Under the pieces are notes generated by a model. The model ran no database searches, was not told the origin of the DNA, and saw only the letters and a program-made list of their open reading frames with translations. Positions 3,846 through 44,485 of a stretch of DNA of 64,000 bases are shown piece after piece (the stretch's first letter is position 1; every line of letters begins with the position of its first letter). The DNA is from a virus (taxonomy: Duplodnaviria > Heunggongvirae > Uroviricota > Caudoviricetes), in the IMG/VR virus record IMGVR_UViG_3300020057_001228, positions 64,001-128,000 of that record; one strand, given 5' to 3'. The position numbers and the translations under genes are program-made.

Positions 3846-4130
3846 ATGTTAGCGGTATCTGATTTCTGTTATAGGTGCGGGGACTGCATTACAGCGTGCC
3901 CCGTACCTGGGACTATCACAAACATTCTCCCTGGCAAGGTCAGGATCAACTCCTTTTCATGTATTGATTGTAACCAGTGCATACCTGTATGCCGCTTTGG
4001 CCTCATTACAAAAGAGAAGGAAGCTGTGACTGAAGTGGAGTCTATTGATATTCTCGCTATGGCAGCACCAGATACCGTTGACGTACCTGCTGAAAAGAAG
4101 CCAGTACTTAAGAGGAAGCGAGCTAAGTAA
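3846..4130 (+). CDS. 2x[4Fe-4S] dicluster ferredoxin-like protein
   Basis: Two CxxCxxCxxxC motifs (CYRCGDCITACP; CIDCNQCIPVCR) at canonical spacing. Stop overlaps the next start (TAATG). Basic tail KKPVLKRKRAK. Confidence 0.88.
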   Translation: MLAVSDFCYRCGDCITACPVPGTITNILPGKVRINSFSCIDCNQCIPVCRFGLITKEKEAVTEVESIDILAMAAPDTVDVPAEKKPVLKRKRAK

Positions 4131-5349: not shown

Positions 5350-5955
5350 GTGGCTGGTACTATCAAATCGATTACAGATCACGCAGGCCCGGATCCCATT
5401 CAGGGATTTGACGTAGACTGCTGGGTAAGCGACGCATCTGACGGTACAATGATCCTGTTTGGTTCATTCACGTCTATCGTTGTAACTATTAGAAACGCTA
5501 CTGAGGCGTATCTAGGACTGAACGAGCGTATCCCCCGTTACCTTGATGGTGAGGTACAGATCGCTTGGGTTATGGAAAAGGGAATGCTCGACGTCAACGT
5601 ACTCAAGCAGAGCTTCGGCTTCTCTGAGATGACTCGTATGATTCGTTTCAACCGTAGTCCTAGGTTCCAGATTACCTTCAACACAAACACATACGGTGAG
5701 CTGAACAAGAAGGTAACCCTTCTATCAGCACTACAGCCTATTACTGATCCAATGCGTGACCCAGATGGTCGTATCGAACTCGTGCGTGCTAAGCTAGACT
5801 CATTCCACTTTGCTGCTACTTCTGGTAAACAGGTTGTAGCTACCCAGTGGCAGGGTGTTTGCGAAGGTATTCGTGTATACGCTGATCACGTTGTTGGTCA
5901 GTACGAGAATGTACCTGGTGCAAGTACTGCACTACCTGGTATTACTGATACATAA
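5350..5955 (+). CDS. tail tube protein
   Basis: 201 aa, compact paralogue of the previous ORF, positioned between sheath and baseplate hub. Confidence 0.65.
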   Translation: MAGTIKSITDHAGPDPIQGFDVDCWVSDASDGTMILFGSFTSIVVTIRNATEAYLGLNERIPRYLDGEVQIAWVMEKGMLDVNVLKQSFGFSEMTRMIRFNRSPRFQITFNTNTYGELNKKVTLLSALQPITDPMRDPDGRIELVRAKLDSFHFAATSGKQVVATQWQGVCEGIRVYADHVVGQYENVPGASTALPGITDT

Positions 5956-8453: not shown

Positions 8454-8737
8454 TGGCAAACATTCCTCTAGACGGTCAGATCCCATTCGAAGTCCTGAAG
8501 TACATGCGTGACCCAGGGCTTATTGCTATTGACGTAGAAGCCCTTACCAAACAGTCCACTACGACTGCTGGTGAATCAGCTAAGTTGGCTAAGGCTGCTG
8601 CGGATGATGCAGTTAAGTCAGCTGAGAACATGACATCAGCGGCTATCCAGACTGCTAACGCAACAAAGATACGCATTGAAGCTGTGCTATCTGCGATCTT
8701 GTCTGGTAGTCTCACTAACCCTCTGGCAGGTATCTAA
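8453..8737 (+). CDS. hypothetical Ala-rich helical protein
   Basis: 94-aa ORF coupled to both neighbours by TAATG overlaps. Confidence 0.6.
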   Translation: MANIPLDGQIPFEVLKYMRDPGLIAIDVEALTKQSTTTAGESAKLAKAAADDAVKSAENMTSAAIQTANATKIRIEAVLSAILSGSLTNPLAGI

Positions 8738-27747: not shown

Positions 27748-28500
27748 ATGTACACACCATTCCCTCTCAACCTTGGTTTACGCAAAGACGTTCTTGATGA
27801 ACGTGACTTCTTGTACAAAGACGACAGGAAGATGAGAGGGTATTTGCCTCCTAGGTTTACAGTACGAGATAAGATGTCTCGTGTGTATAACCAGGGGGCT
27901 CTTGGTTCGTGTACAGCTTTCTCAACAGCTAAGGGAGCTCGTGAAGCTCTAGACCTCAGGGATGATAACCAGTTCACTCCACTGTCAGCTCTGTATCTCT
28001 ATTACCATACAAGAGCTGCCGAAGGTAACATCCAATCTGATTGTGGTGCTACTCTACGTAACGCTGTAAAGATCCTAAGTACCCGTGGGTGTGCTACGCA
28101 TGATGACTGGTTATACGACCAGAATGCGTTCCATACTCTACCAAACCAGAATGCAGAGTCTAGTGCTCCTAGGTTCAAGATCGTAGAGTATCACCGCCTT
28201 ACTACTCTAGAAGAGATGCTGCGCTGCCTTGCAGATGGCTACCCATTCGTTGGTGGTGTGTCAGCCTACTCTCACTGGTATAGTAAGGAAGTAGTTGCTG
28301 GTGGTAAGATCTGCTACCCACGTGATGGGGACTCTGATCTAGGCGGACATGCTATCTGCTTTACGGGTTATGACGTTGGTGAGAGCATACTTCAGTTCAA
28401 GAACTCTTGGGGTGAGGACTGGGGTGATAAGGGTTATGGCTATCTCCCACTGAACTATGTTGAGAAGTACGGGTGGGACTTCTGGACTATGACTAAGTAA
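27748..28500 (+). CDS. papain-family (C1A) cysteine protease
   Basis: Oxyanion Gln and catalytic Cys in 'NQGALGSCTAFS', His in 'GGHAICFTGYD', Asn in 'FKNSWGEDWGDKGYGY'. Confidence 0.93.
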   Translation: MYTPFPLNLGLRKDVLDERDFLYKDDRKMRGYLPPRFTVRDKMSRVYNQGALGSCTAFSTAKGAREALDLRDDNQFTPLSALYLYYHTRAAEGNIQSDCGATLRNAVKILSTRGCATHDDWLYDQNAFHTLPNQNAESSAPRFKIVEYHRLTTLEEMLRCLADGYPFVGGVSAYSHWYSKEVVAGGKICYPRDGDSDLGGHAICFTGYDVGESILQFKNSWGEDWGDKGYGYLPLNYVEKYGWDFWTMTK

Positions 28501-28503
28501 CGG

Positions 28504-28530
28504 TGCTTAAGCAAACACTAGGTACCTAGT
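28504..28530. repeat. two adjacent perfect palindromes upstream of the holin
   Basis: TGCTTAAGCA (28504-28513) and ACTAGGTACCTAGT (28517-28530). Confidence 0.8.
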
Positions 28531-28554
28531 TCATCATTGATTGGGAGAATAGTG

Positions 28555-29028
28555 ATGAAGCGAGGTAAGTCTATCATGCAAGATGTTTACGCTTTCTTCC
28601 GTGAGAACTTTAAGGGTATTCTAGATCATCCTATCGTAGCCACCCTTGGCGCCTTCACGGGAGTTATGCTCCCAATAGTTATCGAACCTGGTCTTGGTTT
28701 AACCCTACTCGTAGCTGTAGATACCTTCACAGGTAGGCAGGCCGCTTACAAGCGTGGTGAAGCTGTGCTCTCTGGTAAGATGCGTCAGATGACCATCAGT
28801 AAAGTGAACGGCTACTTGGTGTTTATTACGATGGCTGCAGTTGCTAGCTTCGTGATGAAATCTGACGTAATGCTTAGAGGTGCCTTCGGTCTAGCTGCTG
28901 CTGTAGAGTTCTTCTCCATTACTGAGAACCTCTACGACATGGGCCTCATTAGATTTGACCCTAGACGTGTACCCCTGTTTAAGGGTATTGTCGATGCTAT
29001 AAAGCATAAGGGTAAGAAGGACGAGTAA
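28555..29028 (+). CDS. holin (Phage_holin_4-like)
   Basis: Hydrophobic segments plus 'VDTFTG..AA...S.KMR...K...Y...EFFSITENL' pattern. Directly upstream of the endolysin. GGGAG SD. Confidence 0.8.
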   Translation: MKRGKSIMQDVYAFFRENFKGILDHPIVATLGAFTGVMLPIVIEPGLGLTLLVAVDTFTGRQAAYKRGEAVLSGKMRQMTISKVNGYLVFITMAAVASFVMKSDVMLRGAFGLAAAVEFFSITENLYDMGLIRFDPRRVPLFKGIVDAIKHKGKKDE

Positions 29029-29032
29029 GACC

Positions 29033-29707
29033 ATGGGTTACTTAAACGCAACAAAGTTGTACGGTAAACAAGATAGCGCGCTGATAGACGAATTCAATCT
29101 CTATCTGTTTGGTGAGAACACACAAGCAAGCCGCCCACTTGGTAAGCCCCAGGGTGTAGTCTTCCACCACACAGCGGGCACGTACAACCAATGCTTCAAT
29201 GGCTATCACTTCAACGTCGTGTATGATGTTAAGACACAAAAAGCACACATCGTGAAGAACCTAACCATCAAGCAGCTTGGACAGCACCTCTGGGGCAGGA
29301 ACACTGGCATGCTAGCCATCTCCTTCTCATCTATGCGTGGTGCTGTGAATATGACCAATCATCCTGGTCCGTATCCAATCAACGCAGCCATGCTACAGGT
29401 AGCTACCATCTTTACAGCTGAGTTGTGTGCTTGGACTTCACTCAACCCTAAAGGTAACCTGGTTCTGCCTAAGAAGCGTATTAGTGGTAATAGCTTAATT
29501 ACAGTACCCGGTGCGTCTATCACAGTACCTGTATTGGGCGACCACGCTATCTATGCTAGGCACGATGGGTACTTCCCTAGTCGTTGGGACGTAGGGGGTC
29601 CTGAGGGTGAAATCATGAAGGCTCTTGCGCCCGCCATTGCTACACATCATGATAGGTTGAAGTCTGGTAAGGCAACGTTCGAGTATCTAGGACTGTTGAA
29701 GGAGTAG
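29033..29707 (+). CDS. endolysin, N-acetylmuramoyl-L-alanine amidase (Amidase_2-like)
   Basis: 'VVFHHTAG', 'GYHFNV', 'HLWGRNTGMLAISF', 'VLGDH' and 'RWD' fit the Amidase_2 Zn-ligand layout. Follows the holin. Confidence 0.85.
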   Translation: MGYLNATKLYGKQDSALIDEFNLYLFGENTQASRPLGKPQGVVFHHTAGTYNQCFNGYHFNVVYDVKTQKAHIVKNLTIKQLGQHLWGRNTGMLAISFSSMRGAVNMTNHPGPYPINAAMLQVATIFTAELCAWTSLNPKGNLVLPKKRISGNSLITVPGASITVPVLGDHAIYARHDGYFPSRWDVGGPEGEIMKALAPAIATHHDRLKSGKATFEYLGLLKE

Positions 29708-30035: not shown

Positions 30036-30308
30036 ATGCAAGCTCCTGATCAGAACTACTACCTCAGTAGGCCAGAGGGAATGGCTGATGAAGACATACT
30101 TAAAGCCTGTCTTACTACCGACTCTCTCGGCTATGCTCTGAAGCTTGCATCTTTCGTCTTTGAAAATGGACTCCAAGTGACTGTGGATGATAGTGTCACT
30201 GGGATCTTCAATCTCTACATCGTCTGTATCGCTAAAGACTTGGACAAGGTAAACTTTTCAACCTATCTAGCGGAAAAGTGGGAGTTAAAATTCAGTGGCC
30301 CAGTTTGA
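30036..30308 (+). CDS. hypothetical protein
   Basis: 90-aa ORF in the gene-dense operon. Confidence 0.55.
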   Translation: MQAPDQNYYLSRPEGMADEDILKACLTTDSLGYALKLASFVFENGLQVTVDDSVTGIFNLYIVCIAKDLDKVNFSTYLAEKWELKFSGPV

Positions 30309-33300
30309 TCCATCGATCCTAGGGTCTGGGGATATTACGTTATCAACGTTCTCCGACCAGGAACTAAGTATACTGAACCAACATGTCATAGCCAATTACA
30401 GCTTGACTATGTTCTCTCCGTTCGCCATGCAATCAATTACGCTACAGCGTCAGAGCTACTTAACTGTACTTAGGGCACAAGGTCCAGCATCTGCTGAAGC
30501 AACGTTTAGGTCCGCTACTAACATCATCCATCAGGCCTTCACAGATAACGGGTTCGGTATCTCCCTAAAGGAAGCTGAAGAGCTATGGGCTGAGATCCCA
30601 GCCGCTGTTGGTACTTACACTGCTACGCCTATCAACAAGGACAACTTCAACCTACAGATGCAGAATCAGATGATGTCTGACCTGACTACCATGTTTAGTC
30701 GTACACCAGATGCTAAGGACAAGGCTCTAATCGGTATCAAGAACTCGACGTTGCCTGACTCTAATCTGGTCACACTCGTTAAGAAGGCTCTACTGATCCC
30801 TGACGCGAGTAAGTTACACGAAGATCCTAAGTTCGCTAACGTTGTACTAACTCCTCTTATGGAGTTGAGACGTACTGCTCCTGCAGACATTGCTACGAGG
30901 ATCAGCAATGCATTCAACCAGATGAACCCGACACGAAGGATCAACATGTCCCATATGATGGGGCTGGATACCTACTGGGCAGATTCAGCTGGGGACCCTA
31001 CTGTCTTTGGTAACCTGATCAAAGCAGATTTAACCAGCAGTGCGCAGTCACAGTTTCCAAACCAAGAGTCTTCAGCTAGCAAGACCTTCCAGAAGATCAT
31101 AGCTGGGCTGTTTAGGAACTTCGAACTCGCTGATCCTGATCCTGATAAGACGCGGCTAGACATAGCCGCAGTCCTTCTTAACGGTATCGCTGACATCCGT
31201 GATACTGAACCTACCAGTACGACCCATGCTTTCGTTCAGATCATCAACAAGGGCTTCGTTGAGAAAGTAACCAACGAGCTGGTTGCTATGACACGTACTG
31301 CGGTTGCTACTCAGAACCAGACCACCATGGATGCTGTATCCAAGCCTATCCTAGAAGCAGCCTATGGCCCAGGAGCCGCTGCTAACTATCGTAACGTAAA
31401 CCTAAAGCAGCAGGACTCTGCACTAGGCTCTACAGTAGCTACAAGGGACAGAAGGATCACTAAGGACGCCAAGACTCTAGATGTAGAGAAGAACGCAAAG
31501 AAGGCCTCTGACGCACTTGGTAATGCTATGCAAGCTGCAGCAGTAGCTGCTGGTATTGCTACCTTTACCACTAACGTTGTAGGCATTGGTCCCATTGATG
31601 CCACAGCTGCTACTCTCAAGGCTTACACAGACCTAGCTGTCATTTCAGGTAGAGATGCTATCTTCAACAACCCTGCTTCCAAACTGCTAGGGTTAAATCG
31701 CTTCTCCCCTATCTACGACCTGGTAGCACAAGACCTAATCCAGCAGCCAGCTAAAGGCGCTATAGCAGCTGTCCAGAAAGAAGTGAACCAGTTGTTCGGT
31801 GGGGTTATGGACTCTATCTTAACCGGTCAGCCTATCAGAGCGTTCGAAGGGGCTAAGAGCCCAGCTGACATGTTAGGTATGCTTGGTAAGACAGCATTGG
31901 GTGGGGCGTTCCCTTGGCTCCTACCACCAGATTCCAAGCTCTCTTCTCCTCTAAGGAAGTATCTAGTTGGCACTGGGGCTCTAGATAACTTCCTTGGTAT
32001 CTCTGCCTTCAATGTCTACGACAAAGGTGGAATGAAGATTGAGCAGGATGGTAGAGCCCCTAAGATCGACAACAGCTTTATAGACGCTGTGCCATCTAAC
32101 CCTATTGGAGCACTGCCTAAACCACAGATCGTCTTTGCAGATGACAACGGTGTCATTAGGTATGAGTTCAAGCTGCTACCAGCTATGAAGTCCAACACTC
32201 AGCTTGGCCACGGGCAGGATGGACAGGACGTTCCATTCCCTAGCTATGGTATCTCCTATAGCCATGTACAGAACATCGCAAGCATTGACGTACCTGGTGG
32301 TACTCCACTGTTCCAATCTCTAGGTATCTCTGCAGACATCATCGAGATTGTAGGAGAAGTAGTCAGCTACGGCTTCCGTGCTGTTGGTGGTACTAAAGAC
32401 TTCAGTCAATCCATGTTCCCCTTTGGTCCAGACTTGAATGCGGAGGGATCAGGCAACAAGAAGATCGCTGGAGCTCTAAGTAACAATGCTACTGAGCGTA
32501 CCAGCTATAGAGCCTATGGTGCCTGGAACGATGTTGAAGAAGGATTAATGAAGCTTACTAAAGAAGGTAAGCCTATCCACTTCAAGATTATGTATAGCTA
32601 CCTCAATGCTGCTGATACTAGCTTCGCTGCCATCGACTACAAGGTCTATATCGCTCGCGTGCAACGTATCCATGCTCGTAGGGATAAGGTGTACTACAAG
32701 ATCACAATGATCCGTACCGAGTGGAAGGGTTTCAACAACGGTAGTACAGATATGAGTGACACAGCAGCAAAGGCTGAGGAGTTGTTCAACAAGAAGAAGG
32801 CAGCTCAGCTTATTGCACCACCTGTATCACAAGACCCCGTACTACCAGGTGGTGTAGACAACCCAGCTCTATCTGACGTGGGTAAGAAGGTCACAGAGGA
32901 CACACTCACCAAGTTAGGTATTGAACCTACGGGCAATTCTCTAAGTGATACTGCCAAACTTGTTGTTGCGGATCAGATCAAGAACCGTAAGCTAACCGTA
33001 AATAACATCACTGGCTTCAACCTAAAGCTTCCTGATAAGCCAGTACACATCATCTCTGATCAAACCTTCAATGGTGTAACAGAGGCTGAGAGAAAGACCA
33101 ATCGGGCTAACCGTAAAGTGAACAAGATTGGTGATAATCTCTATGAGACTGTAGTCTTCGTTAAGACCGAAGGTGGTCAGGGTAGAACTGTAAACGTCCA
33201 GGTAGGTGGTACCGGTACCTTCAAGTCTAATAAACAAGGGGAACTAACACAAACTGGTAAGTTCTTAACAGAAGCTGATGTACGTAACATCGCTATCGCT

Positions 33301-33363
33301 CTAGAAGACAAGAGTCAAACTTCGTTCACTAGCCGTCTCAAGGAAGTGAAGGCTACACCGTAA
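30295..33363 (+). CDS. 1022-aa hypothetical virion protein, possibly containing a tube-initiator-like domain
   Basis: Helical N-terminal half. The beta domain 'ISYSHVQNIASIDVPGGTPLFQSLG...IEIVGEV...YKVYIARV..IH..DKVYYKITM' resembles a tube-fold module. Confidence 0.55.
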   Translation: MAQFDPSILGSGDITLSTFSDQELSILNQHVIANYSLTMFSPFAMQSITLQRQSYLTVLRAQGPASAEATFRSATNIIHQAFTDNGFGISLKEAEELWAEIPAAVGTYTATPINKDNFNLQMQNQMMSDLTTMFSRTPDAKDKALIGIKNSTLPDSNLVTLVKKALLIPDASKLHEDPKFANVVLTPLMELRRTAPADIATRISNAFNQMNPTRRINMSHMMGLDTYWADSAGDPTVFGNLIKADLTSSAQSQFPNQESSASKTFQKIIAGLFRNFELADPDPDKTRLDIAAVLLNGIADIRDTEPTSTTHAFVQIINKGFVEKVTNELVAMTRTAVATQNQTTMDAVSKPILEAAYGPGAAANYRNVNLKQQDSALGSTVATRDRRITKDAKTLDVEKNAKKASDALGNAMQAAAVAAGIATFTTNVVGIGPIDATAATLKAYTDLAVISGRDAIFNNPASKLLGLNRFSPIYDLVAQDLIQQPAKGAIAAVQKEVNQLFGGVMDSILTGQPIRAFEGAKSPADMLGMLGKTALGGAFPWLLPPDSKLSSPLRKYLVGTGALDNFLGISAFNVYDKGGMKIEQDGRAPKIDNSFIDAVPSNPIGALPKPQIVFADDNGVIRYEFKLLPAMKSNTQLGHGQDGQDVPFPSYGISYSHVQNIASIDVPGGTPLFQSLGISADIIEIVGEVVSYGFRAVGGTKDFSQSMFPFGPDLNAEGSGNKKIAGALSNNATERTSYRAYGAWNDVEEGLMKLTKEGKPIHFKIMYSYLNAADTSFAAIDYKVYIARVQRIHARRDKVYYKITMIRTEWKGFNNGSTDMSDTAAKAEELFNKKKAAQLIAPPVSQDPVLPGGVDNPALSDVGKKVTEDTLTKLGIEPTGNSLSDTAKLVVADQIKNRKLTVNNITGFNLKLPDKPVHIISDQTFNGVTEAERKTNRANRKVNKIGDNLYETVVFVKTEGGQGRTVNVQVGGTGTFKSNKQGELTQTGKFLTEADVRNIAIALEDKSQTSFTSRLKEVKATP

Positions 33364-33845
33364 TGGCAGACATCAAGCTAGAGATCGCACTATCGAAAGT
33401 ACTCCCTAGGTTGGGAGGAGTTCAGGGTGCTCGTAAGCTGGAGACTAAGTGTGTAGAGAAGATCGTCAGCCACCCTGGTGACGTCGTTATCATCACTAGC
33501 TATGACTTCACACTACGTCTGCCTAACTGCAAGTTTGGTTACAGGGTGTTTGATGAACGGATGCAGCTACGTTACGCAGTAGCTTTTGATCTATCTCAAG
33601 CTGACCTGTATGAGACGTATGGTGCTGATGTACGTGTGCCTGAGTTCAACTTTGGCTATAATAGTCTAGATGAACTATGGTTATCTTCTGTGACTAAGGG
33701 TGATTTCTTCTACATCATGTACACGTTCCAATCACCAGCAACACTAGATACTCACGAGAGAATCGTCCTCGTTGTTAAAACTGCTGCAGAGAACCAGGAT
33801 CAGTTGCCTGCAAATACCAGCAGAAACATCTTGAAAGGCTTCTAA
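33363..33845 (+). CDS. hypothetical protein
   Basis: 160-aa ORF, TAATG-coupled on both sides. Confidence 0.65.
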   Translation: MADIKLEIALSKVLPRLGGVQGARKLETKCVEKIVSHPGDVVIITSYDFTLRLPNCKFGYRVFDERMQLRYAVAFDLSQADLYETYGADVRVPEFNFGYNSLDELWLSSVTKGDFFYIMYTFQSPATLDTHERIVLVVKTAAENQDQLPANTSRNILKGF

Positions 33846-35566
33846 TGGCTAAGGGTAACTTTAAATCCTTCGGATTGCTTGATGACCTCATCAGTGGGGC
33901 ACAGGAAGGTGGCAGTAGCGACCTTAACATCATCGAGTTCTCTGAACAGGTACTTGAGATCACAACGCTCTACACGCCTCAGAGAGCTGTGCTTAAAGCG
34001 TTCTACAACCTACCACTCGACCCAGATGAAGAAGCCTGGCTAGAGCAGATGGTAGCAGACGACAAGTCTACTTGGGTTAAGGGTAGGAAGTACAAAGAGC
34101 TAGCCCTAGAAGTGGGCATGCGTGCTGGTAAGACTCTGCTTGCATCTATCGTCGTTTGCTATGAGTTCTGGAAGCTCAGCAAGATGGCTGATCCTGCTAA
34201 GGCATTTGGCCTGATCAAGAACTCACCCATCTTCATCATCACAGTAGCTACCACAGGAGCTCAGTCCAAGGATACCGTCTTTGGCTACACCAAGGCTCGT
34301 ATGGAAGGCTCTACCTACTTCAAGGGACTGATGGACAACGGCAGGCTGGTCCTAAAGGATGACCGTATTGAGTTTCCATCGAAGCGCCTAACCATCATTG
34401 GTGGTCACAGCAACCAAGCGGGTATGGTAGGTAAGACAGCCAAGCTGTTCTGCATGGACGAGGCTGCTCGTTTCAAAGAGCAATCAGATGTAGACGCCAA
34501 GAGCATGTACTCTAACGTTGGTAGATCTACAGTTACCTTCAAGGATGAAGGATTTAAGATGGTGGTCTCCTCTGCTTGGGAAGAGGGTGACATCATGGAG
34601 TGGCTATATGAGAGAGGTGATCCACTTAAGGAAGATCAGACTCTGCTAGCCTTCCGGCTTACCACGTGGGATATGAACCCACAGCTCACACGTAACCAGC
34701 TACGCGACCAGTATGAAGCTGACGAAGTAGCAGCTAGACGTGACCATGAGGGTATCCGTCCTGGTACCGTAGAGAACTTCTTCACTAAGAAAGCCATCCT
34801 CGCGTGTATTGAGGATAAGCGTAAGTCAGCTATCACGTTCAACCAGATCACACGGAAGGTAGAAGACAGGACCTACGTTGAGGTTATGCTCAATGAGATC
34901 ACTCGTGTCGACTTCCCTGTGTACTCATACGCACACTCTGACCCTGGTCTTAAGCGAGATAGCTTTGCCTTCGCTTCTGGTAGGCCTGTAAAGACTCCTG
35001 ATGGCATCAAGGTTTACATCGATGTCGTGATTGAGTGGACTCCTCAAGATAGGGGTAAGGGTGTTGTGTACCCTGTAAGCTACGAGAACGTAGAGAAGAT
35101 CATTATGGAAGTACACAAGGCTCGTAACCTTCGTAGGTTAACGTTCGACCACTGGCAGAACGCCAGCCTGGTTCAGAAGCTATACACCAAAGGTATCCTT
35201 ACTAAAGAAGTACAGTTCTCCCGTGGTCACCAGTTAGACATCTATCAAGTTGCTCGACGTAAATTCAACACTGGTATGGTGGTGCTACCTGACGATTGTC
35301 CTAAGCTGATTAGGGAGCTCATCCACATCCAGTTAAAAAACGGATCAAAGATAGATCACCCTGTTAAGAACCCTGACGAGAGTATGGGGTCTAAAGACTT
35401 AGCAGACGCTGTTGTTTCTGTAATCGCACAGTGTGTAGATGAAGAACGCTCAATGATTACAGGTGGAAGGAGTTATGCTCCTATACAGACGTTAGGTAAA
35501 ACACACGTTGCTGATCTCACTACAACTAGGCAGAATTTGCCAAACATTAGTCAACAGATCAAGTAA
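33845..35566 (+). CDS. terL: terminase large subunit
   Basis: Walker A 'VGMRAGKT', Walker B 'LFCMDEAA', nuclease motifs 'HSDPGLKRDSF', 'LTFDHWQ' and 'KIDHP...SKDLADAV'. Confidence 0.9.
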   Translation: MAKGNFKSFGLLDDLISGAQEGGSSDLNIIEFSEQVLEITTLYTPQRAVLKAFYNLPLDPDEEAWLEQMVADDKSTWVKGRKYKELALEVGMRAGKTLLASIVVCYEFWKLSKMADPAKAFGLIKNSPIFIITVATTGAQSKDTVFGYTKARMEGSTYFKGLMDNGRLVLKDDRIEFPSKRLTIIGGHSNQAGMVGKTAKLFCMDEAARFKEQSDVDAKSMYSNVGRSTVTFKDEGFKMVVSSAWEEGDIMEWLYERGDPLKEDQTLLAFRLTTWDMNPQLTRNQLRDQYEADEVAARRDHEGIRPGTVENFFTKKAILACIEDKRKSAITFNQITRKVEDRTYVEVMLNEITRVDFPVYSYAHSDPGLKRDSFAFASGRPVKTPDGIKVYIDVVIEWTPQDRGKGVVYPVSYENVEKIIMEVHKARNLRRLTFDHWQNASLVQKLYTKGILTKEVQFSRGHQLDIYQVARRKFNTGMVVLPDDCPKLIRELIHIQLKNGSKIDHPVKNPDESMGSKDLADAVVSVIAQCVDEERSMITGGRSYAPIQTLGKTHVADLTTTRQNLPNISQQIK

Positions 35567-35608
35567 CCACGCCTACGTGCTATCCTAGATACCTAGGAGT
35601 GATCTATA

Positions 35609-38600
35609 GTGGCCGAGAGCAACTTATTTGAAGACCAGGGTCAATTACTATCTGGTATGGGTGCCAGACAGCAAGCGACACCTAATTCTTCGCTGTTCGT
35701 AACCTCCTACGAGGGTGAACCTAAATATATTAGTACCTTGAATCTACAAGGTGCTAATATCCTCATGTCTCAACCACAGACAGCGTTTGACTCTGCTCGT
35801 CAGGCGAAGCTGTTTGAGACTCATAAGAACATACATCCGTTTAAACAGGATATTCTGTTCCACGCTAAAGCAGCTGTAAGGACAGTATCTGGTATCCCAC
35901 AAGAAGCAGCGATGCTTACTTCTAACTTGACTCCCTCAGGACATGGTAAGAACACAGACTTCTGGGGTAACCCTTATCACAACCAGCTGAACCTGGGTTA
36001 CAACATTACTGATAAGAAGGTAATGTCCGAGCTGAACAGCAAGCTAGCCGTCTTACGTAGTGGTAACCTACCAGCCGCTCATAAGGGCGATAGTATCTTG
36101 GTAGGTGGGCCTGGTACTACAACGCTAGGTAGTCAGGTAGCAGATCTCATCAAGCAGAGTCGTGGCACTATGACCATGACATCAGCTACGATATCTACGA
36201 ATTCAGAAGCTGTAACTGGTGCTATCCGTGACAAGCTGACCCGTGGCGATACTGTAAACCTGTACGTTGGTGGTGTATCAGAACAGGATCGTAAGTCTGG
36301 CGCAGCTAGCGTTAAGGCTTTAATGCCATTCGCCACAAAGAACAACCTGAAGGTTTTCAACCTACCACCAGGCGCCTCATCCCACGCTAACGTCTATGCG
36401 TTCCAGAATGGTTTGATGCTCATCGGTTCTGCTCGTGACTCCGATCAAGCTATGGGCGGCAACAACGTTGAGATGCTCCTAAAGGTTGTGGACAAGGGAG
36501 CTGGTGTTCAGCTCAAGAAGATCCTAGACCAGCACTTCACTGAGTCTCTAGATCCCTATAAGATGTACCAGGCTAGCGCAAAGCTAAGCACAGATACTGT
36601 CTTTCGTTCTGATGAAATCTGGAAGTCTGTTAGACAGGTAACTGGTCTCTCTGAGCAGCGCTATCGTGTCGATCCGTTTATCCCTACAGATGTACGTAGG
36701 GGACTCAAGAATGAGATCGGAGCTGAGCTAGCTCGTAAGGGTATCACTGACCCCAGTGTGATAGCTGAAGAGTACAGCAAGCGGGTACGTGGGTACTCAC
36801 AGCGTGGTGTCTATAGCTACATGTACTCTAGTGCTTACCAAGAGGTGAATGGTAGGACTGGACGTAACCTAGTACCAATGGGTCCACCAGAGATCCCGTA
36901 CGCTATCCGTATTGCGGATGAGAAGGCTATGGCTCTCACACAGGGAGACAAGTGGGCCTCTCACTGGGCTGTACAGAACTACGCTAAGGTCGCTGGTGAC
37001 CTAGGTGTGGGTATTGACCTATCAGAGTTTGCTCAGCGTGAAGGCCGTGGTATGGCAGCATCGCTGATCTTAAGCCACGTCCACCAGTACGAGAAGAGCT
37101 CCTACCTCAAAGAGGTCGATGAGCGCTCTCATAGTGAGTACAGGCCTAACCTAGCAGGGTTCCAAAAAGGATTCCTTGAGTCTGGCTTAGAGTCAATCTT
37201 CGATGGTACTAACTCGCTAATCATGATGGGTGCTATGTACACCTATGGTATGCGTTGGGTAGCTAGAGACCTGGCTGACATCCAAGGCCAGTTCATGACA
37301 GCGATGGCCCATAAGATCGATGGAGATCTGTATGCTAATAAGCTAAAGGCTAACAACCATGCTGGCCGATGGGCTGTTCGTGGCGCAGCTAAGATGCTAA
37401 ACGTCATGGGTAGTTTTACCCACGGTATGATGGCTGGTCTATCTCTTGGTTCTCTTAACACCTACAACGAGACTATGCGTGCCATCTTCCCTTCAACCGT
37501 AAACCCTATGGAAAAGACTATGCAGTCTGTTGTATCCAAAGGTGGAACTCATGCTGACGTAGTAGCCGCGGTTAACAAGGTCTGGATCGGTGCTGCCAAC
37601 ACTGTAGAGAGGGCTATTGATAAGACTATGCTAGAACACATTGGTAGTGTTCTCCGCAACTTTATCAAGAAGCAGACGCCAGTAGGCCTTCAGAAGGCTA
37701 TGCACAACGCTCTCAGAGGCGCAGGAGCAATGAAGGGCATGGGGGCTGCTCTCCTAATGGCAGCCAAGAGTAACGTAGGGGTTCGTGGGGCTCTGGGAGC
37801 TGCTGCGTTTAGTATCGCTACAGGTATCACAGCATGGAACTCTCTCTATGCTTCTCAGTCTGCAGCTACCCAGTTAACCACAGGGGAACAGATCACAGCG
37901 CAGAAGACCATCGAGACAATCTTTGGTGATCAAATTCGTGTGCCTCTTACCATGTACAGAGCTGGGTATAACCCGACTGCAGTCTCTACATCTGTAGACA
38001 CAATGATCGCAGCCTCTCTAGGAGCTGCTGTCGGCGCAAAGATAGGTGGACCTAGAGGCGCTCTTGCTGGCGGTATTATCGGTGCTGCCGGTGTCCTAGC
38101 TGGCGGCCTTAGTCCTGGCTTTGCATACGAGAACTACATTAGGGTACCACTACTCAATAACTATGAGATGGGTACGTACGACTTCCTAAACCACGGAGCC
38201 TACAGGGCGGGTGGTGCAGTAGCTGGATTCGGGGCAGGTGTAGCCTATGGCACCCTGTACGCACGTAGGTTTAGCACACCTCGCCACATCGTAAGTGGCA
38301 CGGTTGTATCCACTGTAGCTGGTATCATCGGTGGAGTCGTTGGTGCTAACCTGAACCACGTCATTGCTGGTCTAGCCGGCACTCAGTGGAAAGCTCACCA
38401 TATGGAAGGTGCTGAGCACAGCTGGGTAGTCCTTGGTAACAAGTTCAACCAGGCTGCTGGTTACCTTATGGCTGCTAAAGAAGCTAAGGATCGCTACCTG
38501 AAGAAGGGCAATCCTGACGACATGAAGCTATGGTATCAGCTGAACCAGAAGGCCCTTGCCTACAACCACATGCGTGGTGATGGCACAGCCGGTAACATGG

Positions 38601-41600
38601 TTGGTATCGTTAACCAAATCGGTCACCCAATGCTAGGTGTGTTGGCCATGGGTGAGGTCATTAAGACTGACCAGGCTAACCGTGTTAAGACCACATACTT
38701 CGTAGGTATCCAGGGCCCATTCCACGTTCAGATGGGTATTGGTTTGGTTGCCCCTTACCAGAAGGTAGAAACACGTAACGAGCACGGAGCAATACAAACC
38801 CAGTGGGAGTACGCTCCTGATACTGTAGCTGGTGGTTTAATCAGCGCAGCTGCCTTCCCAGTCGTAGGTTTAATATCTGCTGGAGCTATCCTTGGTTCTG
38901 CCTATGGTTGGAAACCAACTGGTAAGCTCGGTCTGGCTGTAGGTGTAGCTAAGTACAACATTGCTGTAAACCCTCTAGGCCTGGCAGCTAAGCTAACCTC
39001 TGGTGCATGGAACATCATCTCCTCTGCTGCTGAAGCTACCCGTAATGCTGGTAAGCCTATGGGCAGAGCAGCTTTACCAAGGTACCGCGTAACACCAGGT
39101 GTCATCGGTTCCATCGGTCTAGCATCTGCCTTCGCTACTGCTATTGGTATGCAGTGGGCAGGAGCCAGGGCTGCTCTTATCGCGCACAGTGGTGACAATA
39201 TCGGTGGGCGTATGCGCGAGATGACCAACGTTAGCCAAGACATAGAAGCTAATGGTGGTAGGAACCTTACCAACCTAGCGTTCGTATCTGGTGCTCTAGT
39301 TGGTGGAGCTTCCGGTTTAGGTGGCTACAGACATGACACCTTAGTCAAACACCCAGGTATGAGTAAGACTCAAATGGCTAGAGGTATGGGTCTAGCTGGT
39401 GCCTACCGTGGCGCCGTCGTAGCCTTTGCTATGGCAGGACTAGCAGAGCTAGCGAGTGCTTACGGTGCTCCTACCTTCATGAACAACATCTGGCTACAGG
39501 TAACAGGGTTCGGTCAGAAGGTTAATAAGGTAGATGGTGGACTTAGCACTAAGATGCGTAGGGCTAACCATACTACGGATGGCTTCCTCGGCAGCTATGA
39601 TGTCATTGCATCACAGATGTCTGCTAACGAGAACGCTCCACCAACTGGTGCAAACTGGTGGGCAATAACGCTTCGTAACATATCTACTCTTCCCAAGGCT
39701 ATTTACCTAGGTATCTCTGCACCGTTTGTAGGAGCTGGTGGTGCAGCAGGTGTCAAGTTTGGTGACCAGACAGGTGACGGTGCGTTATCCTACCCAACGT
39801 CATTCACGCAGGCGCAGTACCCAGGTCAGGACTTCACGATGTCTACCACCACATGGGGTAGCAAGACGATCAAGCCTGACGACATAGCTATGTACATGGA
39901 TGTCTTAAGTAAGTCCCCTGAGTGGCTACGTACGCATAGGCATACCCGTAACCCTCGTGTATCTGGGACCATGTTCTACCAGAGTGGTGCTCTACAGGAT
40001 GCATCTCCATCTGTACGTATGGCTGTTACCCAAAGGCTCAACATCCACAAGTGGGCACTAGGCGCATGGGGTGACGAAGTAGCTAACTACATGGGTATCG
40101 ACCCTGTAACTACTAAAGGCCAGATGTCTTACCTCACTTCCAAGGGTAGTGGGTTCCAGATGAAGCGCTTCGAAGTAAAGCTAGGCTCGCTGAGCAACGT
40201 CATCAAAGACCAATTCAGGAACATTGAGAAGTACATTACGACCAAAGGAGAGTACGTAGAAGTAGACGGTGTAAACCAAGCCGAGTTCCAGGCTCGTAGT
40301 GAAGAGCTATGGACTAAGCTACAACGCTATAGAAGCAAACTAGGTTCGCCTGGTGCTGCTACCTTTAACGCGTTTGCTAAGAGTGATAGCGATGACATGG
40401 TTAACATGCTCGTTGTTACAGCCGGTGCCGCATCTCTTGGTATGTACGCTGTACGACAGCTGTTCATCAATGGTAGTACTGACAAGAGTGGCCTGCTGCA
40501 GAGGATCACACGCTCTTGGCAAGGTGCTATGACTAACTTGGCTACTGCTCTTGGTGGTAGTGAAGCTCTACAGAACCAGAAACTAGGTACCCATATTCAG
40601 ATGGTCAGGCCTCTAGGTCAACCTATGCGTTGGGACCCAGTAGCAGAAGCTATGAAGGTAACTCAGCAGAGTCTTGTGGACACACTTAAGGTAAGTGCTG
40701 AGCCATACTACCTAGACTCCAGGGTAAAGCTGCATTATGTAGTCACCGGCCACCACTACTTTGCACCTGGTGGTGTATCGATGGTAGATGAGATGACTAG
40801 ACGTCTAGTTAACAACCAGGTTGGTAGGTTCGAGGTAGCGTTCCTACAGGGTAAGATAGCCGCTGGGTTCACCAATGCGTTCGACACACCTCTAACCTAC
40901 AATATGATTGAGCATGGTCTTGTACAAAACATCCAGCTCATGTCCCAACACATCACTGACTCGCGTACAGCTCTTATCAACTTGCTAAACCACGCAGGTG
41001 GGAGCGAGGCTGGTATCATGCCTCAGTTCCAGAACTACGTAGACAGAAGTGACGCTTTGCTCGCTAGGGCTAATAACCTATTGGCTATTCATGTACCAGG
41101 ACATGTTGAGGTAACTGATAAGGAGCTTCTAGCTCTTACCAGGGGTATCGCTGAAGATGTTGAAAAGCTAATGGTAGAGGCCCAGGACCAGCACGGATTC
41201 GTCCGGTTTGGTCTAGGTGCTGAAGCTAGTGACGTTACCTTTAAACAGGTGCACATCGACGCAAAGACCATGTCCAAGTCAGCTACAGCTTGGCAGTGGA
41301 CCAGGAAGATACTTAGCGGTGCCTTTGGTGCTGATCACCACAAGAGAGTAGCAGTACAGTTAGAGGCTGAAAGAGTAAGGGCAGCTAGCGTACAGTCATC
41401 CAGAGGAACATCCCAGACCTTTGAAGGAGCTCGCTACAAGAGGACCACTGGCCCACAGGCTAGATCTGTAGCAATGTGGACTCGTAGTCTGCTTGGTGGC
41501 AGCATGGGTGATGAACTCCATGAGATGACCACTGGTGAGCTAGCAGCGAAGAACGTTGGTTTAGCAGCCGCTAAGGGTGGTAGTAGTATTCTAGCCATAC

Positions 41601-44485
41601 TTAAGTTTGGTGGTTCATCTCTGATGATCATCAATAACCTTGGCTATATGGCATCGTTCCCCATCATGACTATGGCTGCTACAAGCAAGTACAGTACCAA
41701 GGAAGTAAGAGAAGCTGCTGCTGTTGGTATGCTATCTATGCCTGGTGTTATCGCTGTAGACGTCCTGATTGGTAGACAGATCAACGCCCATGCTATAGCC
41801 GCTGGTGGCTCGTCTCCACTCTTCGCTAGCTTCATTGGTAAGCAGTTCGATAGGCTTGGTGGCGCAGCTACCATGAAGAAGCTGTTCCCATGGGCAGGAT
41901 CAGTTGCAGGGTTTGCTGAGTCTAGTAAGATAGCCCAAGCTGTTGGTTGGCTTAAGGTAGGTGCTACTGATGGCTTCGTAAAGACCGAAGGCAAGCACGC
42001 TGTTGCTAATATCATCAGAGCTACAGTAGGTGCTGCTGCTGGGTACGCAATAGGTGGTAGTACGACCGGAGCTGTAATTGGTGGTGCCGTTGGTACAGCA
42101 GCTCTACGAGGAGCTGTTCTACAGTCTCTACGTGGTGGTATACAACTAGGAGCTTTCGTTGTAGTAGGTGGTGCTGCTGATCACTTCTTCACAGGCGGTG
42201 CGCTTGTTAAGGGCATGGGTGAAACCATGGAGAAGCAACGTAAGTTCCAGCGCAGCGAAGACACATGGGCCCGTATAACCTCTGGTGCATCTAGCATGGC
42301 TGCTGAGTGGATGCAGTGGGGTACTCTCATTGGTTCTGCTATTGAACCTGGTGGAGGTACTGTAGTAGGTGCTGTCGCTGGTGCTGGACTTGGTCTACTT
42401 GCTGGTGGCTTCATGGGTCTATTCGATGGCTTCCGTGGCCTAGATGACATCGGTTCTAAGATAGCTCACTCTATTGCTTTGGGAACTCAAGAGTACAACG
42501 TTAAGTGGAGAGTAGCTCTCGATAGGCGTGGAGCTAGACCGGCTACCGGTGTCTGGGATTGGATGGGTCGTGGTATCTCACGGGGTAGCCTGGGTATGTC
42601 TGACATTGTCTGGCAGACTATCTTTGGTAGGAGCTACGGAACGATCATAGCCAAGGAGATGAACAAGAATGGTGTAGAAGGTACAAGTCTATCTCTATAC
42701 AACCAGGTCCTCAAATCCTTCTCTCCAATCTGGCATGGTAATGCCAACGACTACATCAAGAATGTAGCTATCCCTGAGCAGGAGGCTATGAGGCTAGGTG
42801 TAGCTGGTAACTCCATGTACAAGCTATTCGCTGGTGCTACGTTCAACGAGTTCAAGAATGGCATTGGCTACGATATGGTTCAGGGTGCAGACCTACCAGG
42901 TAGGTACTACGCTAACCCTAATGGTATTGGGCTTGCTTCTGTTACCGAGCGTAGGATTGGTGCTGACTTCATGCCTAGTCAGACATTCGGTGACCCTGTA
43001 GCTTCCGCTATGAAGACTCGTGCCATGATCACTGACACATGGGCACTAGGTCAGGTACTCAATCGTGAGAACACAAACGTCGATAAGCTGCTCCGTCCCG
43101 ATAAGGTCAAGGGTGGCTACCTAGACTCAATAGCTAGCGGTATAGGTTCAGCATGGGGCTGGTCCAAATCTACTGTCGGTGGTGGGCTTAGTGGTGTTGG
43201 TTCAGCGTTAGGTTACGTGGCTAATGCCTGGAAAAGCGCTGTAGGTTACTGGAGTAACGGTGCTGGTCCTGGTAATGGCGTAGGCGGTGTAAGTGACGGT
43301 GTAGCAATGGCTCATCGTATTATCACAAGTGACTTCAAAGGACTACACTTCAGTGGTGGTGGTAGAAGTGCTGCTCGTAACGCTGCAGTTGGTGGTGTGG
43401 TAGGAAGTAGACACATCGAGAACGCTGCTGGTATCAGAGACGCTAACGACTACGTGGGTTCTATAACCGATATGAACAAGGCTGCGGCCCGTATCAACGG
43501 TATCAGAGGTATGTCCGCCATAGTCCACAATGCTGGATCAGGACTCCATCTACACGTACAAACCGCTGCAGGTACACAGAGAGGCGTTGTTACTCATGAG
43601 TCCCACGAGCACCCTCATGAACATGAAGGCGAACACAAGGAAGTAAAGACACCTGTTGGTAGTATTAGTTCCAGTCCTATGGGTGGTTGGAACACCACTG
43701 TACTCAAGAGCATGACTTCACTAGCCAAAGGTAATACTCAACGGTTTGCTGGGTATATAGAAAGAGCTGCTGCTAAATACGGAGTAGATAAGAACCTGAT
43801 CGCGTTGATCGCATCGCAGGAGTCTAACTTCAACGTACAGTCTACATCTCACTCCGGTGCTATTGGTCTAATGCAGACTATGCCATTCCACTGGACTAAG
43901 TCACAGGTAGCTTCTGGTATAGCTAGAGATCCTCTGAACAACATCATGAAGGGTACCAGTATCTTCTCTGGTTACTACAACAGGCTGTCAGGTATCAAAG
44001 ATAAGGTCGAACGTGTGAAGTTCGCTCTAGCTTCTTACAACGCTGGTCCTGGCCATGTAGACAACGCAATGGCAGAAGCACGTAGGCGTGGACTCAACCC
44101 ACATAAGTACGAGAACGTTGTTGGACTGCTACCTGCTCAAGAGAACAGGGAGTACGCTGCCAGAGTTCTCGCATGGGGAGGTGGTAAAGCACCTACAGGT
44201 ACCACTGGTAAAGCACCTACAGGTACCACTGGTAAGAACACAGGTGGTTCTGTACAGATTGATATCCCATCAAAGACTATGATGGCAGCAATCGATACAA
44301 CACGCCAGAATGCCTCTGAAAGAGTACCGGGCATACGTTACGCAGTAATGCAGGGTAACGTGGCTTACACGGCACGTGGTGAGGTTGTAGATAGAACAGA
44401 AGCTATGAGTGCAGATGCCTCAGACAATACTCAGTACGTATCGATGGCTAAGTACATGCAGGACACTACATTCAGGATGGGATAA
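35609..44485 (+). CDS. giant tape-measure-like protein: degenerate PLD domain + Gly/Ala-rich hydrophobic core + M15A peptidase + lytic transglycosylase (SLT)
   Basis: PLD-like 'SHANVYAFQNGLMLIGSARD...NNVE'. M15A-like 'RSAARNAAVGGVVGSRH...D...HLHV'. SLT 'AAKYGVD...SQESNFN...SGAIGLMQ...NIMKG...ALASYNAGPG'. Many GAAxGA hydrophobic repeats. Confidence 0.8.
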   Translation: MAESNLFEDQGQLLSGMGARQQATPNSSLFVTSYEGEPKYISTLNLQGANILMSQPQTAFDSARQAKLFETHKNIHPFKQDILFHAKAAVRTVSGIPQEAAMLTSNLTPSGHGKNTDFWGNPYHNQLNLGYNITDKKVMSELNSKLAVLRSGNLPAAHKGDSILVGGPGTTTLGSQVADLIKQSRGTMTMTSATISTNSEAVTGAIRDKLTRGDTVNLYVGGVSEQDRKSGAASVKALMPFATKNNLKVFNLPPGASSHANVYAFQNGLMLIGSARDSDQAMGGNNVEMLLKVVDKGAGVQLKKILDQHFTESLDPYKMYQASAKLSTDTVFRSDEIWKSVRQVTGLSEQRYRVDPFIPTDVRRGLKNEIGAELARKGITDPSVIAEEYSKRVRGYSQRGVYSYMYSSAYQEVNGRTGRNLVPMGPPEIPYAIRIADEKAMALTQGDKWASHWAVQNYAKVAGDLGVGIDLSEFAQREGRGMAASLILSHVHQYEKSSYLKEVDERSHSEYRPNLAGFQKGFLESGLESIFDGTNSLIMMGAMYTYGMRWVARDLADIQGQFMTAMAHKIDGDLYANKLKANNHAGRWAVRGAAKMLNVMGSFTHGMMAGLSLGSLNTYNETMRAIFPSTVNPMEKTMQSVVSKGGTHADVVAAVNKVWIGAANTVERAIDKTMLEHIGSVLRNFIKKQTPVGLQKAMHNALRGAGAMKGMGAALLMAAKSNVGVRGALGAAAFSIATGITAWNSLYASQSAATQLTTGEQITAQKTIETIFGDQIRVPLTMYRAGYNPTAVSTSVDTMIAASLGAAVGAKIGGPRGALAGGIIGAAGVLAGGLSPGFAYENYIRVPLLNNYEMGTYDFLNHGAYRAGGAVAGFGAGVAYGTLYARRFSTPRHIVSGTVVSTVAGIIGGVVGANLNHVIAGLAGTQWKAHHMEGAEHSWVVLGNKFNQAAGYLMAAKEAKDRYLKKGNPDDMKLWYQLNQKALAYNHMRGDGTAGNMVGIVNQIGHPMLGVLAMGEVIKTDQANRVKTTYFVGIQGPFHVQMGIGLVAPYQKVETRNEHGAIQTQWEYAPDTVAGGLISAAAFPVVGLISAGAILGSAYGWKPTGKLGLAVGVAKYNIAVNPLGLAAKLTSGAWNIISSAAEATRNAGKPMGRAALPRYRVTPGVIGSIGLASAFATAIGMQWAGARAALIAHSGDNIGGRMREMTNVSQDIEANGGRNLTNLAFVSGALVGGASGLGGYRHDTLVKHPGMSKTQMARGMGLAGAYRGAVVAFAMAGLAELASAYGAPTFMNNIWLQVTGFGQKVNKVDGGLSTKMRRANHTTDGFLGSYDVIASQMSANENAPPTGANWWAITLRNISTLPKAIYLGISAPFVGAGGAAGVKFGDQTGDGALSYPTSFTQAQYPGQDFTMSTTTWGSKTIKPDDIAMYMDVLSKSPEWLRTHRHTRNPRVSGTMFYQSGALQDASPSVRMAVTQRLNIHKWALGAWGDEVANYMGIDPVTTKGQMSYLTSKGSGFQMKRFEVKLGSLSNVIKDQFRNIEKYITTKGEYVEVDGVNQAEFQARSEELWTKLQRYRSKLGSPGAATFNAFAKSDSDDMVNMLVVTAGAASLGMYAVRQLFINGSTDKSGLLQRITRSWQGAMTNLATALGGSEALQNQKLGTHIQMVRPLGQPMRWDPVAEAMKVTQQSLVDTLKVSAEPYYLDSRVKLHYVVTGHHYFAPGGVSMVDEMTRRLVNNQVGRFEVAFLQGKIAAGFTNAFDTPLTYNMIEHGLVQNIQLMSQHITDSRTALINLLNHAGGSEAGIMPQFQNYVDRSDALLARANNLLAIHVPGHVEVTDKELLALTRGIAEDVEKLMVEAQDQHGFVRFGLGAEASDVTFKQVHIDAKTMSKSATAWQWTRKILSGAFGADHHKRVAVQLEAERVRAASVQSSRGTSQTFEGARYKRTTGPQARSVAMWTRSLLGGSMGDELHEMTTGELAAKNVGLAAAKGGSSILAILKFGGSSLMIINNLGYMASFPIMTMAATSKYSTKEVREAAAVGMLSMPGVIAVDVLIGRQINAHAIAAGGSSPLFASFIGKQFDRLGGAATMKKLFPWAGSVAGFAESSKIAQAVGWLKVGATDGFVKTEGKHAVANIIRATVGAAAGYAIGGSTTGAVIGGAVGTAALRGAVLQSLRGGIQLGAFVVVGGAADHFFTGGALVKGMGETMEKQRKFQRSEDTWARITSGASSMAAEWMQWGTLIGSAIEPGGGTVVGAVAGAGLGLLAGGFMGLFDGFRGLDDIGSKIAHSIALGTQEYNVKWRVALDRRGARPATGVWDWMGRGISRGSLGMSDIVWQTIFGRSYGTIIAKEMNKNGVEGTSLSLYNQVLKSFSPIWHGNANDYIKNVAIPEQEAMRLGVAGNSMYKLFAGATFNEFKNGIGYDMVQGADLPGRYYANPNGIGLASVTERRIGADFMPSQTFGDPVASAMKTRAMITDTWALGQVLNRENTNVDKLLRPDKVKGGYLDSIASGIGSAWGWSKSTVGGGLSGVGSALGYVANAWKSAVGYWSNGAGPGNGVGGVSDGVAMAHRIITSDFKGLHFSGGGRSAARNAAVGGVVGSRHIENAAGIRDANDYVGSITDMNKAAARINGIRGMSAIVHNAGSGLHLHVQTAAGTQRGVVTHESHEHPHEHEGEHKEVKTPVGSISSSPMGGWNTTVLKSMTSLAKGNTQRFAGYIERAAAKYGVDKNLIALIASQESNFNVQSTSHSGAIGLMQTMPFHWTKSQVASGIARDPLNNIMKGTSIFSGYYNRLSGIKDKVERVKFALASYNAGPGHVDNAMAEARRRGLNPHKYENVVGLLPAQENREYAARVLAWGGGKAPTGTTGKAPTGTTGKNTGGSVQIDIPSKTMMAAIDTTRQNASERVPGIRYAVMQGNVAYTARGEVVDRTEAMSADASDNTQYVSMAKYMQDTTFRMG
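44183..44230 (+). repeat. 24-bp perfect tandem repeat x2 (GKAPTGTT linker)
   Basis: GGTAAAGCACCTACAGGTACCACT twice, just after the SLT domain. Confidence 0.95.

Follow-up and report, generated by a model that had tools for sequence, protein, structure and literature searches.

Genomic setting of a cysteine-free giant gene

The window analyzed here (64,000 nt) belongs to a virus record of 166,577 nt from microbial-mat metagenomes, whose sheath, tube, baseplate, and terminase genes indicate a contractile-tailed myovirus. The terminase was nearest to those of the Fukuivirus phages (Ma-LMM01 and MaMV) and of the Microcoleus phage My-WqHQDG, and the structural block is syntenic with that of the Microcystis phage Ma-LMM01. 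Directly 3' of the terminase gene, a position shared by almost all relatives, lies a giant open reading frame (ORF) whose features are collected in table 1. The ORF is whole within one contig and near-identical pieces of it occur in three other microbial-mat runs, which supports its original reading as a real gene of 2,958 codons; an assembly chimera was ruled out because one contig spans the ORF and the same architecture recurs in independent genomes. The alignment of the orthologues to the giant begins at residue 5-7, and no promoter- or terminator-like site was found at the 3' end of the gene. About 23 Cys residues would be expected in a protein of this size, against none observed (P about 1e-10 from the genome frequency), and this absence is common to nearly all homologues.

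Several neighboring genes deserve mention. Directly 5' of the terminase (33363-33845, +), a 160-aa gene kept in the closest relatives gave no family match. Ahead of it, a 1,022-aa Cys-free protein (30295-33363, +), conserved in relatives at 951-1,295 aa, matches Ma-LMM01 gp111 in its C-terminal part and is possibly a third internal or tail-lumen protein. A papain-like C1 peptidase, a holin (family 4_1), and an amidase-like gene follow one another at 27748-29707 (+), probably forming a lysis cassette within the late block, and 4130-5338 and 5350-5955 (+) encode a tandem pair of paralogues of gp092, the tube protein of Ma-LMM01.

Table 1. Features of the giant gene and its immediate upstream region (window coordinates)
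Feature	Position	Strand	Evidence
Terminase large subunit	33845..35566	+	PHROG 17415, E 2e-23; 36% to Ma-LMM01/MaMV terminases; synteny
Shine-Dalgarno-like AGGAG ahead of GTG start	35595..35599	+	sequence
Giant ORF, 2,958 aa, GTG start, no Cys	35609..44485	+	sequence
PLD lobe 1, half-site 1: H85-x-K87, T104-S-N106, Q126-x-N128	35696..36013	+	alignments; bilobed match
PLD lobe 2, half-site 2: H259-x-N261, G273-S-A-R276, N-V-E288	36143..36532	+	Pfam PLDc_2; fold; invariant residues; covariation
Core (about 2,200 aa) with conserved blocks, no known family; Gly/Ala-rich, moderately hydrophobic spacers	36626..43258	+	
M15_3-type zinc peptidase (R2586, H2602, D2614, H2647, H2649)	43331..43564	+	sequence
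His/Glu-rich linker between peptidase and SLT	43595..43642	+	sequence
SLT lytic transglycosylase, catalytic Glu2738 (43820)	43754..44089	+	Pfam, alignment, fold
Low-complexity linker, duplicated 8-residue unit	44175..44235	+	
C-terminal module, about 70 aa	44276..44482	+	conserved in five orthologues

The searches yielded four full-length orthologues (2,913-3,347 aa) plus a fragment, and all those with known context stand directly after the terminase. Searches of IMG/VR with the giant protein or its core blocks returned no close relatives; with the terminase alignment used as bait, 39 further viral loci were obtained, and a giant Cys-free ORF lies just downstream of the terminase in 24 of the 30 examined. 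The cores of these terminase-fetched giants and of Ma-LMM01 gp120 (YP_851134, 2,898 aa) form one BLAST-linked group. Both gp120 and WOL31340 of Microcoleus phage My-WqHQDG (4,151 aa), each annotated as hypothetical, resemble the window giant in following the terminase, lacking Cys, and carrying a tandem phospholipase D (PLD) domain, and the colinear profile matches of their cores (hhalign 93% and 77%) tie the gp120 group to the window giant by remote homology. With five targets searched, the core profile matched this group at E 5e-7. One core block compared with gp120 as a single sequence pair gave no significant match, and the profile-profile comparison was significant. Weaker ties, through position and PLD head, attach L033 and L015/L017 to the family, in which core length ranges over 2,150-2,900 aa. 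Among the relatives' terminases, inteins or insertions occur at different sites (L011:6925-9957, L016/L017, and L044), of LAGLIDADG type in L011 and as an HNH-like intein close to the C-terminus in L016/L017, and a terminase fragment of the clade (L056, LUGL01000161.1) was found in an assembly of the cyanobacterium Elainella saxicola.

Wall hydrolases and the core

Two wall-cutting domains had been proposed near the C-terminus of the giant, and both were recovered. The SLT domain is supported by Pfam (PF01464, E 4e-23), by the invariance of its catalytic Glu2738, and by an MltF-like fold (Z 14); it shows the Glu within ES, the GLMQ and YNAG motifs, and the lysozyme-like fold. The M15 pattern, located as proposed at 43364-43555, is upheld at the level of sequence. 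Scored directly against Pfam, the region gave E 0.5; all four homologues found for it (4/4) are PF08291 proteins at 44-52% identity, with E down to 1e-7, and the five residues named in table 1 are invariant across the alignment, D2614 being the Asp ligand after a 5-residue insertion between His and Asp. In the model, the ligand loop has a pLDDT of about 30, and M15 structures were absent from the fold-search and PDB sequence-search listings, an absence that does not count as evidence. The peptidase slot of the orthologues holds an M23 domain in three cases and a CHAP domain in one, and this swapping of M15, M23, and CHAP supports a peptidoglycan peptidase in the window giant. The original proposal of one chain with a glycan-cutting and a peptide-cutting domain is supported, and the virion delivery that belongs to the same proposal is plausible.

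The module is not general to the family. No recognizable wall hydrolase was detected with Pfam in gp120 or WOL31340, unlike in the window giant, so the hydrolases are an accessory of the family and the description of the giant as an envelope-breaching protein applies to an accessory feature. The His/Glu-rich linker occurs only together with the M15 domain and is possibly a zinc-binding tail that came with it. One 24-nt copy within the low-complexity linker is missing in frame in one population (one contig, depth 2.7), and in L015:11894-21760 the order is reversed, with SLT ahead of M23.

The core is rich in Gly and Ala (25% together), as had been described, and its conserved blocks are partly beta-like. 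The many hydrophobic helices attributed to it stood only in part: hydrophobic segments are present, and they exceed chance weakly when compared with same-composition shuffles, with 4 segments at a Kyte-Doolittle value of >=1.6 against 3.2 in the shuffles (126/300 reach the observed number) and 12 at >=1.3 against 8.6 (28/300). On sequence features of this kind, membrane insertion of the core would be plausible. A search of the Atlas with core residues 985-1520 gave no usable match, and an apparent internal repeat failed in hhalign, no internal repeats being detected.

The giant resembles typical tail tape measures in its near-C-terminal wall hydrolases, its hydrophobic segments, and the conserved tip at its C-terminus, and no long gene lies between tube and hub in this genome. 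The giant may accordingly be a displaced tape measure with its enzyme head at the capsid end, an arrangement compatible with an active nuclease and with precedent in P23-45 gp96, a tape measure fused to a virion RNA polymerase (PMC10770324). Against this, the gene follows the terminase both here and in relatives instead of lying between the tube/chaperone and hub genes, no chaperone genes are found upstream of it in the clade, and the protein has neither helical repeats nor a tape-measure profile match outside the SLT domain. By the rule of thumb of 0.15 nm per residue for tape measures, the approximately 2,450 post-PLD residues would span roughly 365 nm, compared with the 260-nm tail of MaMV-DH01, a tail shorter than expected from the homologue. 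Other candidates for the function also exist, namely Ma-LMM01 gp098 (1,177 aa) and, in the window, the 704-aa product of 8737-10851 (+). The latter is acidic and helical, its gene lies within the baseplate block roughly where gp098 does in Ma-LMM01, and it is an alternative tape-measure candidate by position. We regard a tape-measure role for the giant as possible and do not favor it.

The known proteins closest in layout differ in similar respects. The tape measures and virion lysins SPbeta YomI, gp41 of PDB 9B45, and PHROG 669 are likewise very long, contain hydrophobic segments, and combine SLT with a peptidase, but their sequence similarity to the window giant is confined to the SLT domain, and the giant is set apart by where its gene lies, by its lack of repeats, and by its putative nuclease head. 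P23-45 gp96 shares the placement of an N-terminal enzyme on a giant with membrane and metallopeptidase domains, and the window phage also has two RNA-polymerase-like genes; it differs in that the window giant lacks DxDGD, that the polymerase motif resides in a separate giant, and that the tail is contractile. In the Streptomyces davawensis contractile injection system, the effector Tme is related to tape measures, bears membrane helices, and is a proven nuclease (PMC11126660); it differs in its EndA-type C-terminal nuclease and its bacterial tailocin-like system. T7 gp16 carries an SLT domain on a large internal protein, and this SLT matched that of the window giant. In N4 and crAss-like phages, cargo proteins are paired with a giant virion polymerase. 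T7, N4, and crAss-like phages are short-tailed, and no core homology was found between them and the window giant.

A PLD head with a rearranged half-site

The N-terminal region models as a PLD-superfamily fold, as had been predicted, with agreement among Pfam, Foldseek, VIA-align, and the Atlas. Scanned alone, the domain matched Pfam PLDc_2 at residues 179-308 with 29.5 bits (cut-off 27); its model reached the PLD superfamily in Foldseek at E 6e-8; and VIA-align gave Z 13.2 over 243 residues in a bilobed match, all 23 matches with Z>=8 being PLD-fold. A PDB sequence search with the PLD profile produced no match. The original span of about 36150-36500 starts too late, as the bilobed domain begins at about residue 30, and the motifs HANVYAFQ and GSAR, confirmed at 36383 and 36425, describe the site incompletely because half-site 1 had been overlooked. 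This half-site, at 35861-35926, retains His, Lys, and Asn (H85, K87, and N106).

Neither half displays the canonical HxKxxxxD, half 1 having HxK without the Asp and half 2 HxN, nor is the Asn of GSxN present in both, since half 1 reads TSN and half 2 GSAR. Within half-site 2, the replacement of Lys by Asn is accompanied by that of Asn by Arg, and the conserved Glu288 is retained. H85 and H259 are conserved in all PLD-bearing homologues, HxK in 16/16 complete first half-sites, and the lobe-2 acid in 15/17 homologues, so that the conservation of these four positions spans sequences too distant for BLAST. The half-site 1 Asn is lost in Ma-LMM01 gp120, L050, L042, and L048. Lobe 1 was modeled with a pLDDT of 30-40, and the active site was not seen assembled in the model. 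In four relatives (L037:13529, L043:13821, L051:13551, and L003:22947) the PLD is internal, preceded by an N-terminal extension of 300-950 residues, and in L015 the conserved Glu apparently lies in lobe 1 instead of lobe 2.

The exchange in half-site 2 follows a strict pattern. Among 17 homologues, HxN occurs with Arg at the GSxN position in 11/11 and HxK with Asn in 6/6, a pairing for which a naive Fisher test gives p 8e-5, overstated since the sequences are related; for L042 and L048 this count relies on a manual placement of the Arg, which lies beyond an insertion. The conservation of H-x-N across homologues, on which the original prediction had asked for an alignment, thus extends to 11/17, the other six having HxK. 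On the terminase tree, at least three changes of the HxN/HxK state are demanded, and recombination may make the number of origins uncertain. Both states accordingly exist in nature: gp120 has HxN...Arg...NxE as in the window giant, and WOL31340 differs in its canonical HxK...Asn state and in an N-terminal extension of 900 residues. Because HxN always pairs with Arg and HxK with Asn, the basic residue seems to have been relocated and not lost; half-site 1 offers Lys and Asn and half-site 2 Asn and Arg as phosphate ligands, the same chemistries in reversed order. On these patterns, the PLD domain is probably not dead and would perform the same chemistry with a relocated basic residue. The suggestion of a changed chemistry therefore came close, unchanged chemistry with the basic residue moved being likelier, and that of a degenerate binder that builds or guards the DNA channel is not favored, given the intact half-site 1, the reciprocal covariation in 17/17, and the nuclease swaps described below. 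A reciprocal exchange of Lys and Asn such as this would broaden what counts as an active PLD site, members without HKD being commonly filed as inactive.

To our knowledge, no characterized PLD member has the HxN...Arg half-site arrangement, and it was not found in the literature searched. The fold is shared (Z 10-13) with Nuc, NucT, Zucchini, BfiI, Tdp1, PLD3/4, and poxvirus F13, and the head also has two His half-sites in one chain, with a cross-lobe His-Glu and His-Gln/Asn asymmetry like that of Tdp1. Compared with characterized PLDs, it lacks the HKD Asp, has Asn for Lys and Arg for Asn in half-site 2, and, unlike known members, forms part of a putative phage structural protein. The Tdp1 pairs are His263 with Glu538 and His493 with Gln294, the phosphate being bound by two Lys and two Asn (PMC5509001); the window PLD has a Tdp1-like asymmetry, with the amide in lobe 1 and the Glu in lobe 2.

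A further indication of function comes from homologues in which the head is replaced. In P0007, L035, and L041, the PLD has given way to a staphylococcal nuclease (SNase; Pfam E about 1e-12 to 1e-14) with intact catalytic motifs, and homology to the PLD-bearing sister resumes directly after the swap (L035 257 to Microcoleus protein 1215 at 71%; L041 238 to L043 768 at 40%; P0007 314 to window giant 351). Well-supported branches of the terminase tree force three separate PLD/SNase changes, and no lipase was seen in place of the PLD among the homologues. Since three lineages carry an intact SNase instead, nucleic acid is favored over lipid as the PLD substrate, and the sequences suggest that the PLD head probably functions as a nuclease whose active site has been rearranged; the replacement itself shows the capacity of the slot and not what the PLD cuts. 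L016/L017 and L044, sequences incomplete at the C-terminus, begin without an enzyme domain, and the head thus appears dispensable.

The head could instead be catalytically dead or lipid-acting, binding or remodeling the membrane around the DNA channel in the manner of poxvirus F13 or a true phospholipase D. Its best structural matches do include true PLDs, F13, and phosphatidylserine synthase, half-site 2 is without the canonical Lys, Asp, and Asn, and the protein has to cross membranes. Fold scores, however, track two-lobe size and give no substrate, and by rmsd the best matches of lobe 2 are Nuc, NucT, and Zucchini. A dead domain would make the strict covariation of two phosphate ligands hard to explain, and a lipid-acting one sits poorly with three nuclease replacements and no lipase replacement. 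We consider a dead or lipid-acting head improbable.

Proposed delivery and role

A second Cys-free giant of 2,933 aa is encoded in the same genome (G000:C1 44437-53238, -; L006:438-9239), before the portal gene and divergent from it, and bears an RNA-polymerase-like DWDGD motif together with two PLD half-sites of canonical form. Its counterpart is Ma-LMM01 gp080, which, judging by length, is the Ma-LMM01 entry labeled PLD-containing in UniProt. One giant stands at each end of the structural block, an arrangement suggestive of a common route of packaging and delivery. An RNA-polymerase identity for the 2,958-aa giant was ruled out, as DxDGD is absent from it and its orthologues and the motif lies in the other giant. 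Virion-type signs in the 2,958-aa giant comprise the lack of Cys, the location at the end of the structural block, the wall hydrolases, the absence of an evident signal peptide, and the existence of the second PLD-headed Cys-free giant. Virion proteomics for Ma-LMM01-type phages was not found in the literature, and mass spectrometry is noted as still needed in the MaMV-DH01 paper (PMC9927357).

From these sequence features, we lean, with slightly better than even confidence, toward a late structural protein that would be delivered by the virion, act in entry, and carry an active PLD nuclease head. The giant would be made beside the terminase, packaged unfolded or inside the head or tail, and released at infection, presumably on tail contraction. 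The SLT and M15 domains, recognized from sequence, would open a local hole in the peptidoglycan, an activity expected of their families, and hairpins of the Gly/Ala-rich core could conceivably insert into the membrane and contribute to forming or anchoring the route of delivery. The bilobed PLD would act as a metal-independent phosphodiesterase, most likely a non-specific nuclease. By analogy with Tdp1, the nucleophile of such a site would be H85, in a pair with E288, and the general acid would be H259, in a pair with Q126/N128; phosphate binding would fall to K87, N106, N261, and R276, the last of these standing in for the lost Lys. The residues themselves are present, their geometry and activity being putative.

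A non-virion role, in which the giant acts late inside the cell to break down host DNA or aid lysis, would suit a gene that follows the terminase downstream of the holin, amidase, and C1 peptidase genes. Separate lysis genes exist, however, the total absence of Cys noted above extends to the homologues, and entry proteins typically show such a fusion of hydrolases to a long body, here of 2,200 aa; such a role seems to us quite unlikely.

With regard to where a virion-delivered nuclease would act, nucleases of the SNase, Nuc, and NucT kinds are non-specific and as a rule exported, and the Ca2+ requirement of SNase is a poor fit to the cytoplasm. An enzyme that works outside the cytoplasm might clear extracellular DNA in mats and colony mucilage, or stay in the envelope and destroy the DNA of later phages, and the mat origin of this phage and an SNase domain noted on a virion hub protein, a partial precedent (PMC2147016), point in that direction. 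A Cys-free giant with membrane segments nevertheless looks internal and not surface-exposed, a periplasmic nuclease by the channel would endanger the phage's own DNA, and the RNA-polymerase-like giant, cytoplasm-bound by necessity, has the same kind of head. We hold an extracytoplasmic nuclease to be unlikely. Within the nuclease reading as a whole, host nucleic acid met just after entry has about an even chance of being the target, extracellular or periplasmic DNA is a lesser candidate, and processing of the phage's own DNA is the least expected of the three. In Ma-LMM01 infection, host transcripts barely change (PMC5780444), which counts against wholesale destruction of host DNA in that phage.

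More broadly, and only tentatively, Ma-LMM01-type myoviruses may inject two PLD-headed giants, one a virion RNA polymerase and the other a carrier that crosses wall and membrane with a pre-made nuclease acting on host nucleic acid before phage expression, in many lineages through an undescribed HxN...Arg site. A ready-made nuclease from a myovirus would be an unusual start of infection or an anti-defense measure, and raises the question of how the phage DNA is spared. Among the papers covered, which exclude most subscription journals, none dealt with gp120 or with phage virion proteins that bear a PLD. The present analysis worked out the Lys/Asn to Asn/Arg covariation, the number of SNase swaps on the tree, and the exchange of M15, M23, and CHAP in the peptidase slot, and the nuclease reading offers a testable function for gp120, one of the two largest unannotated genes of the cultured bloom-control phage Ma-LMM01.
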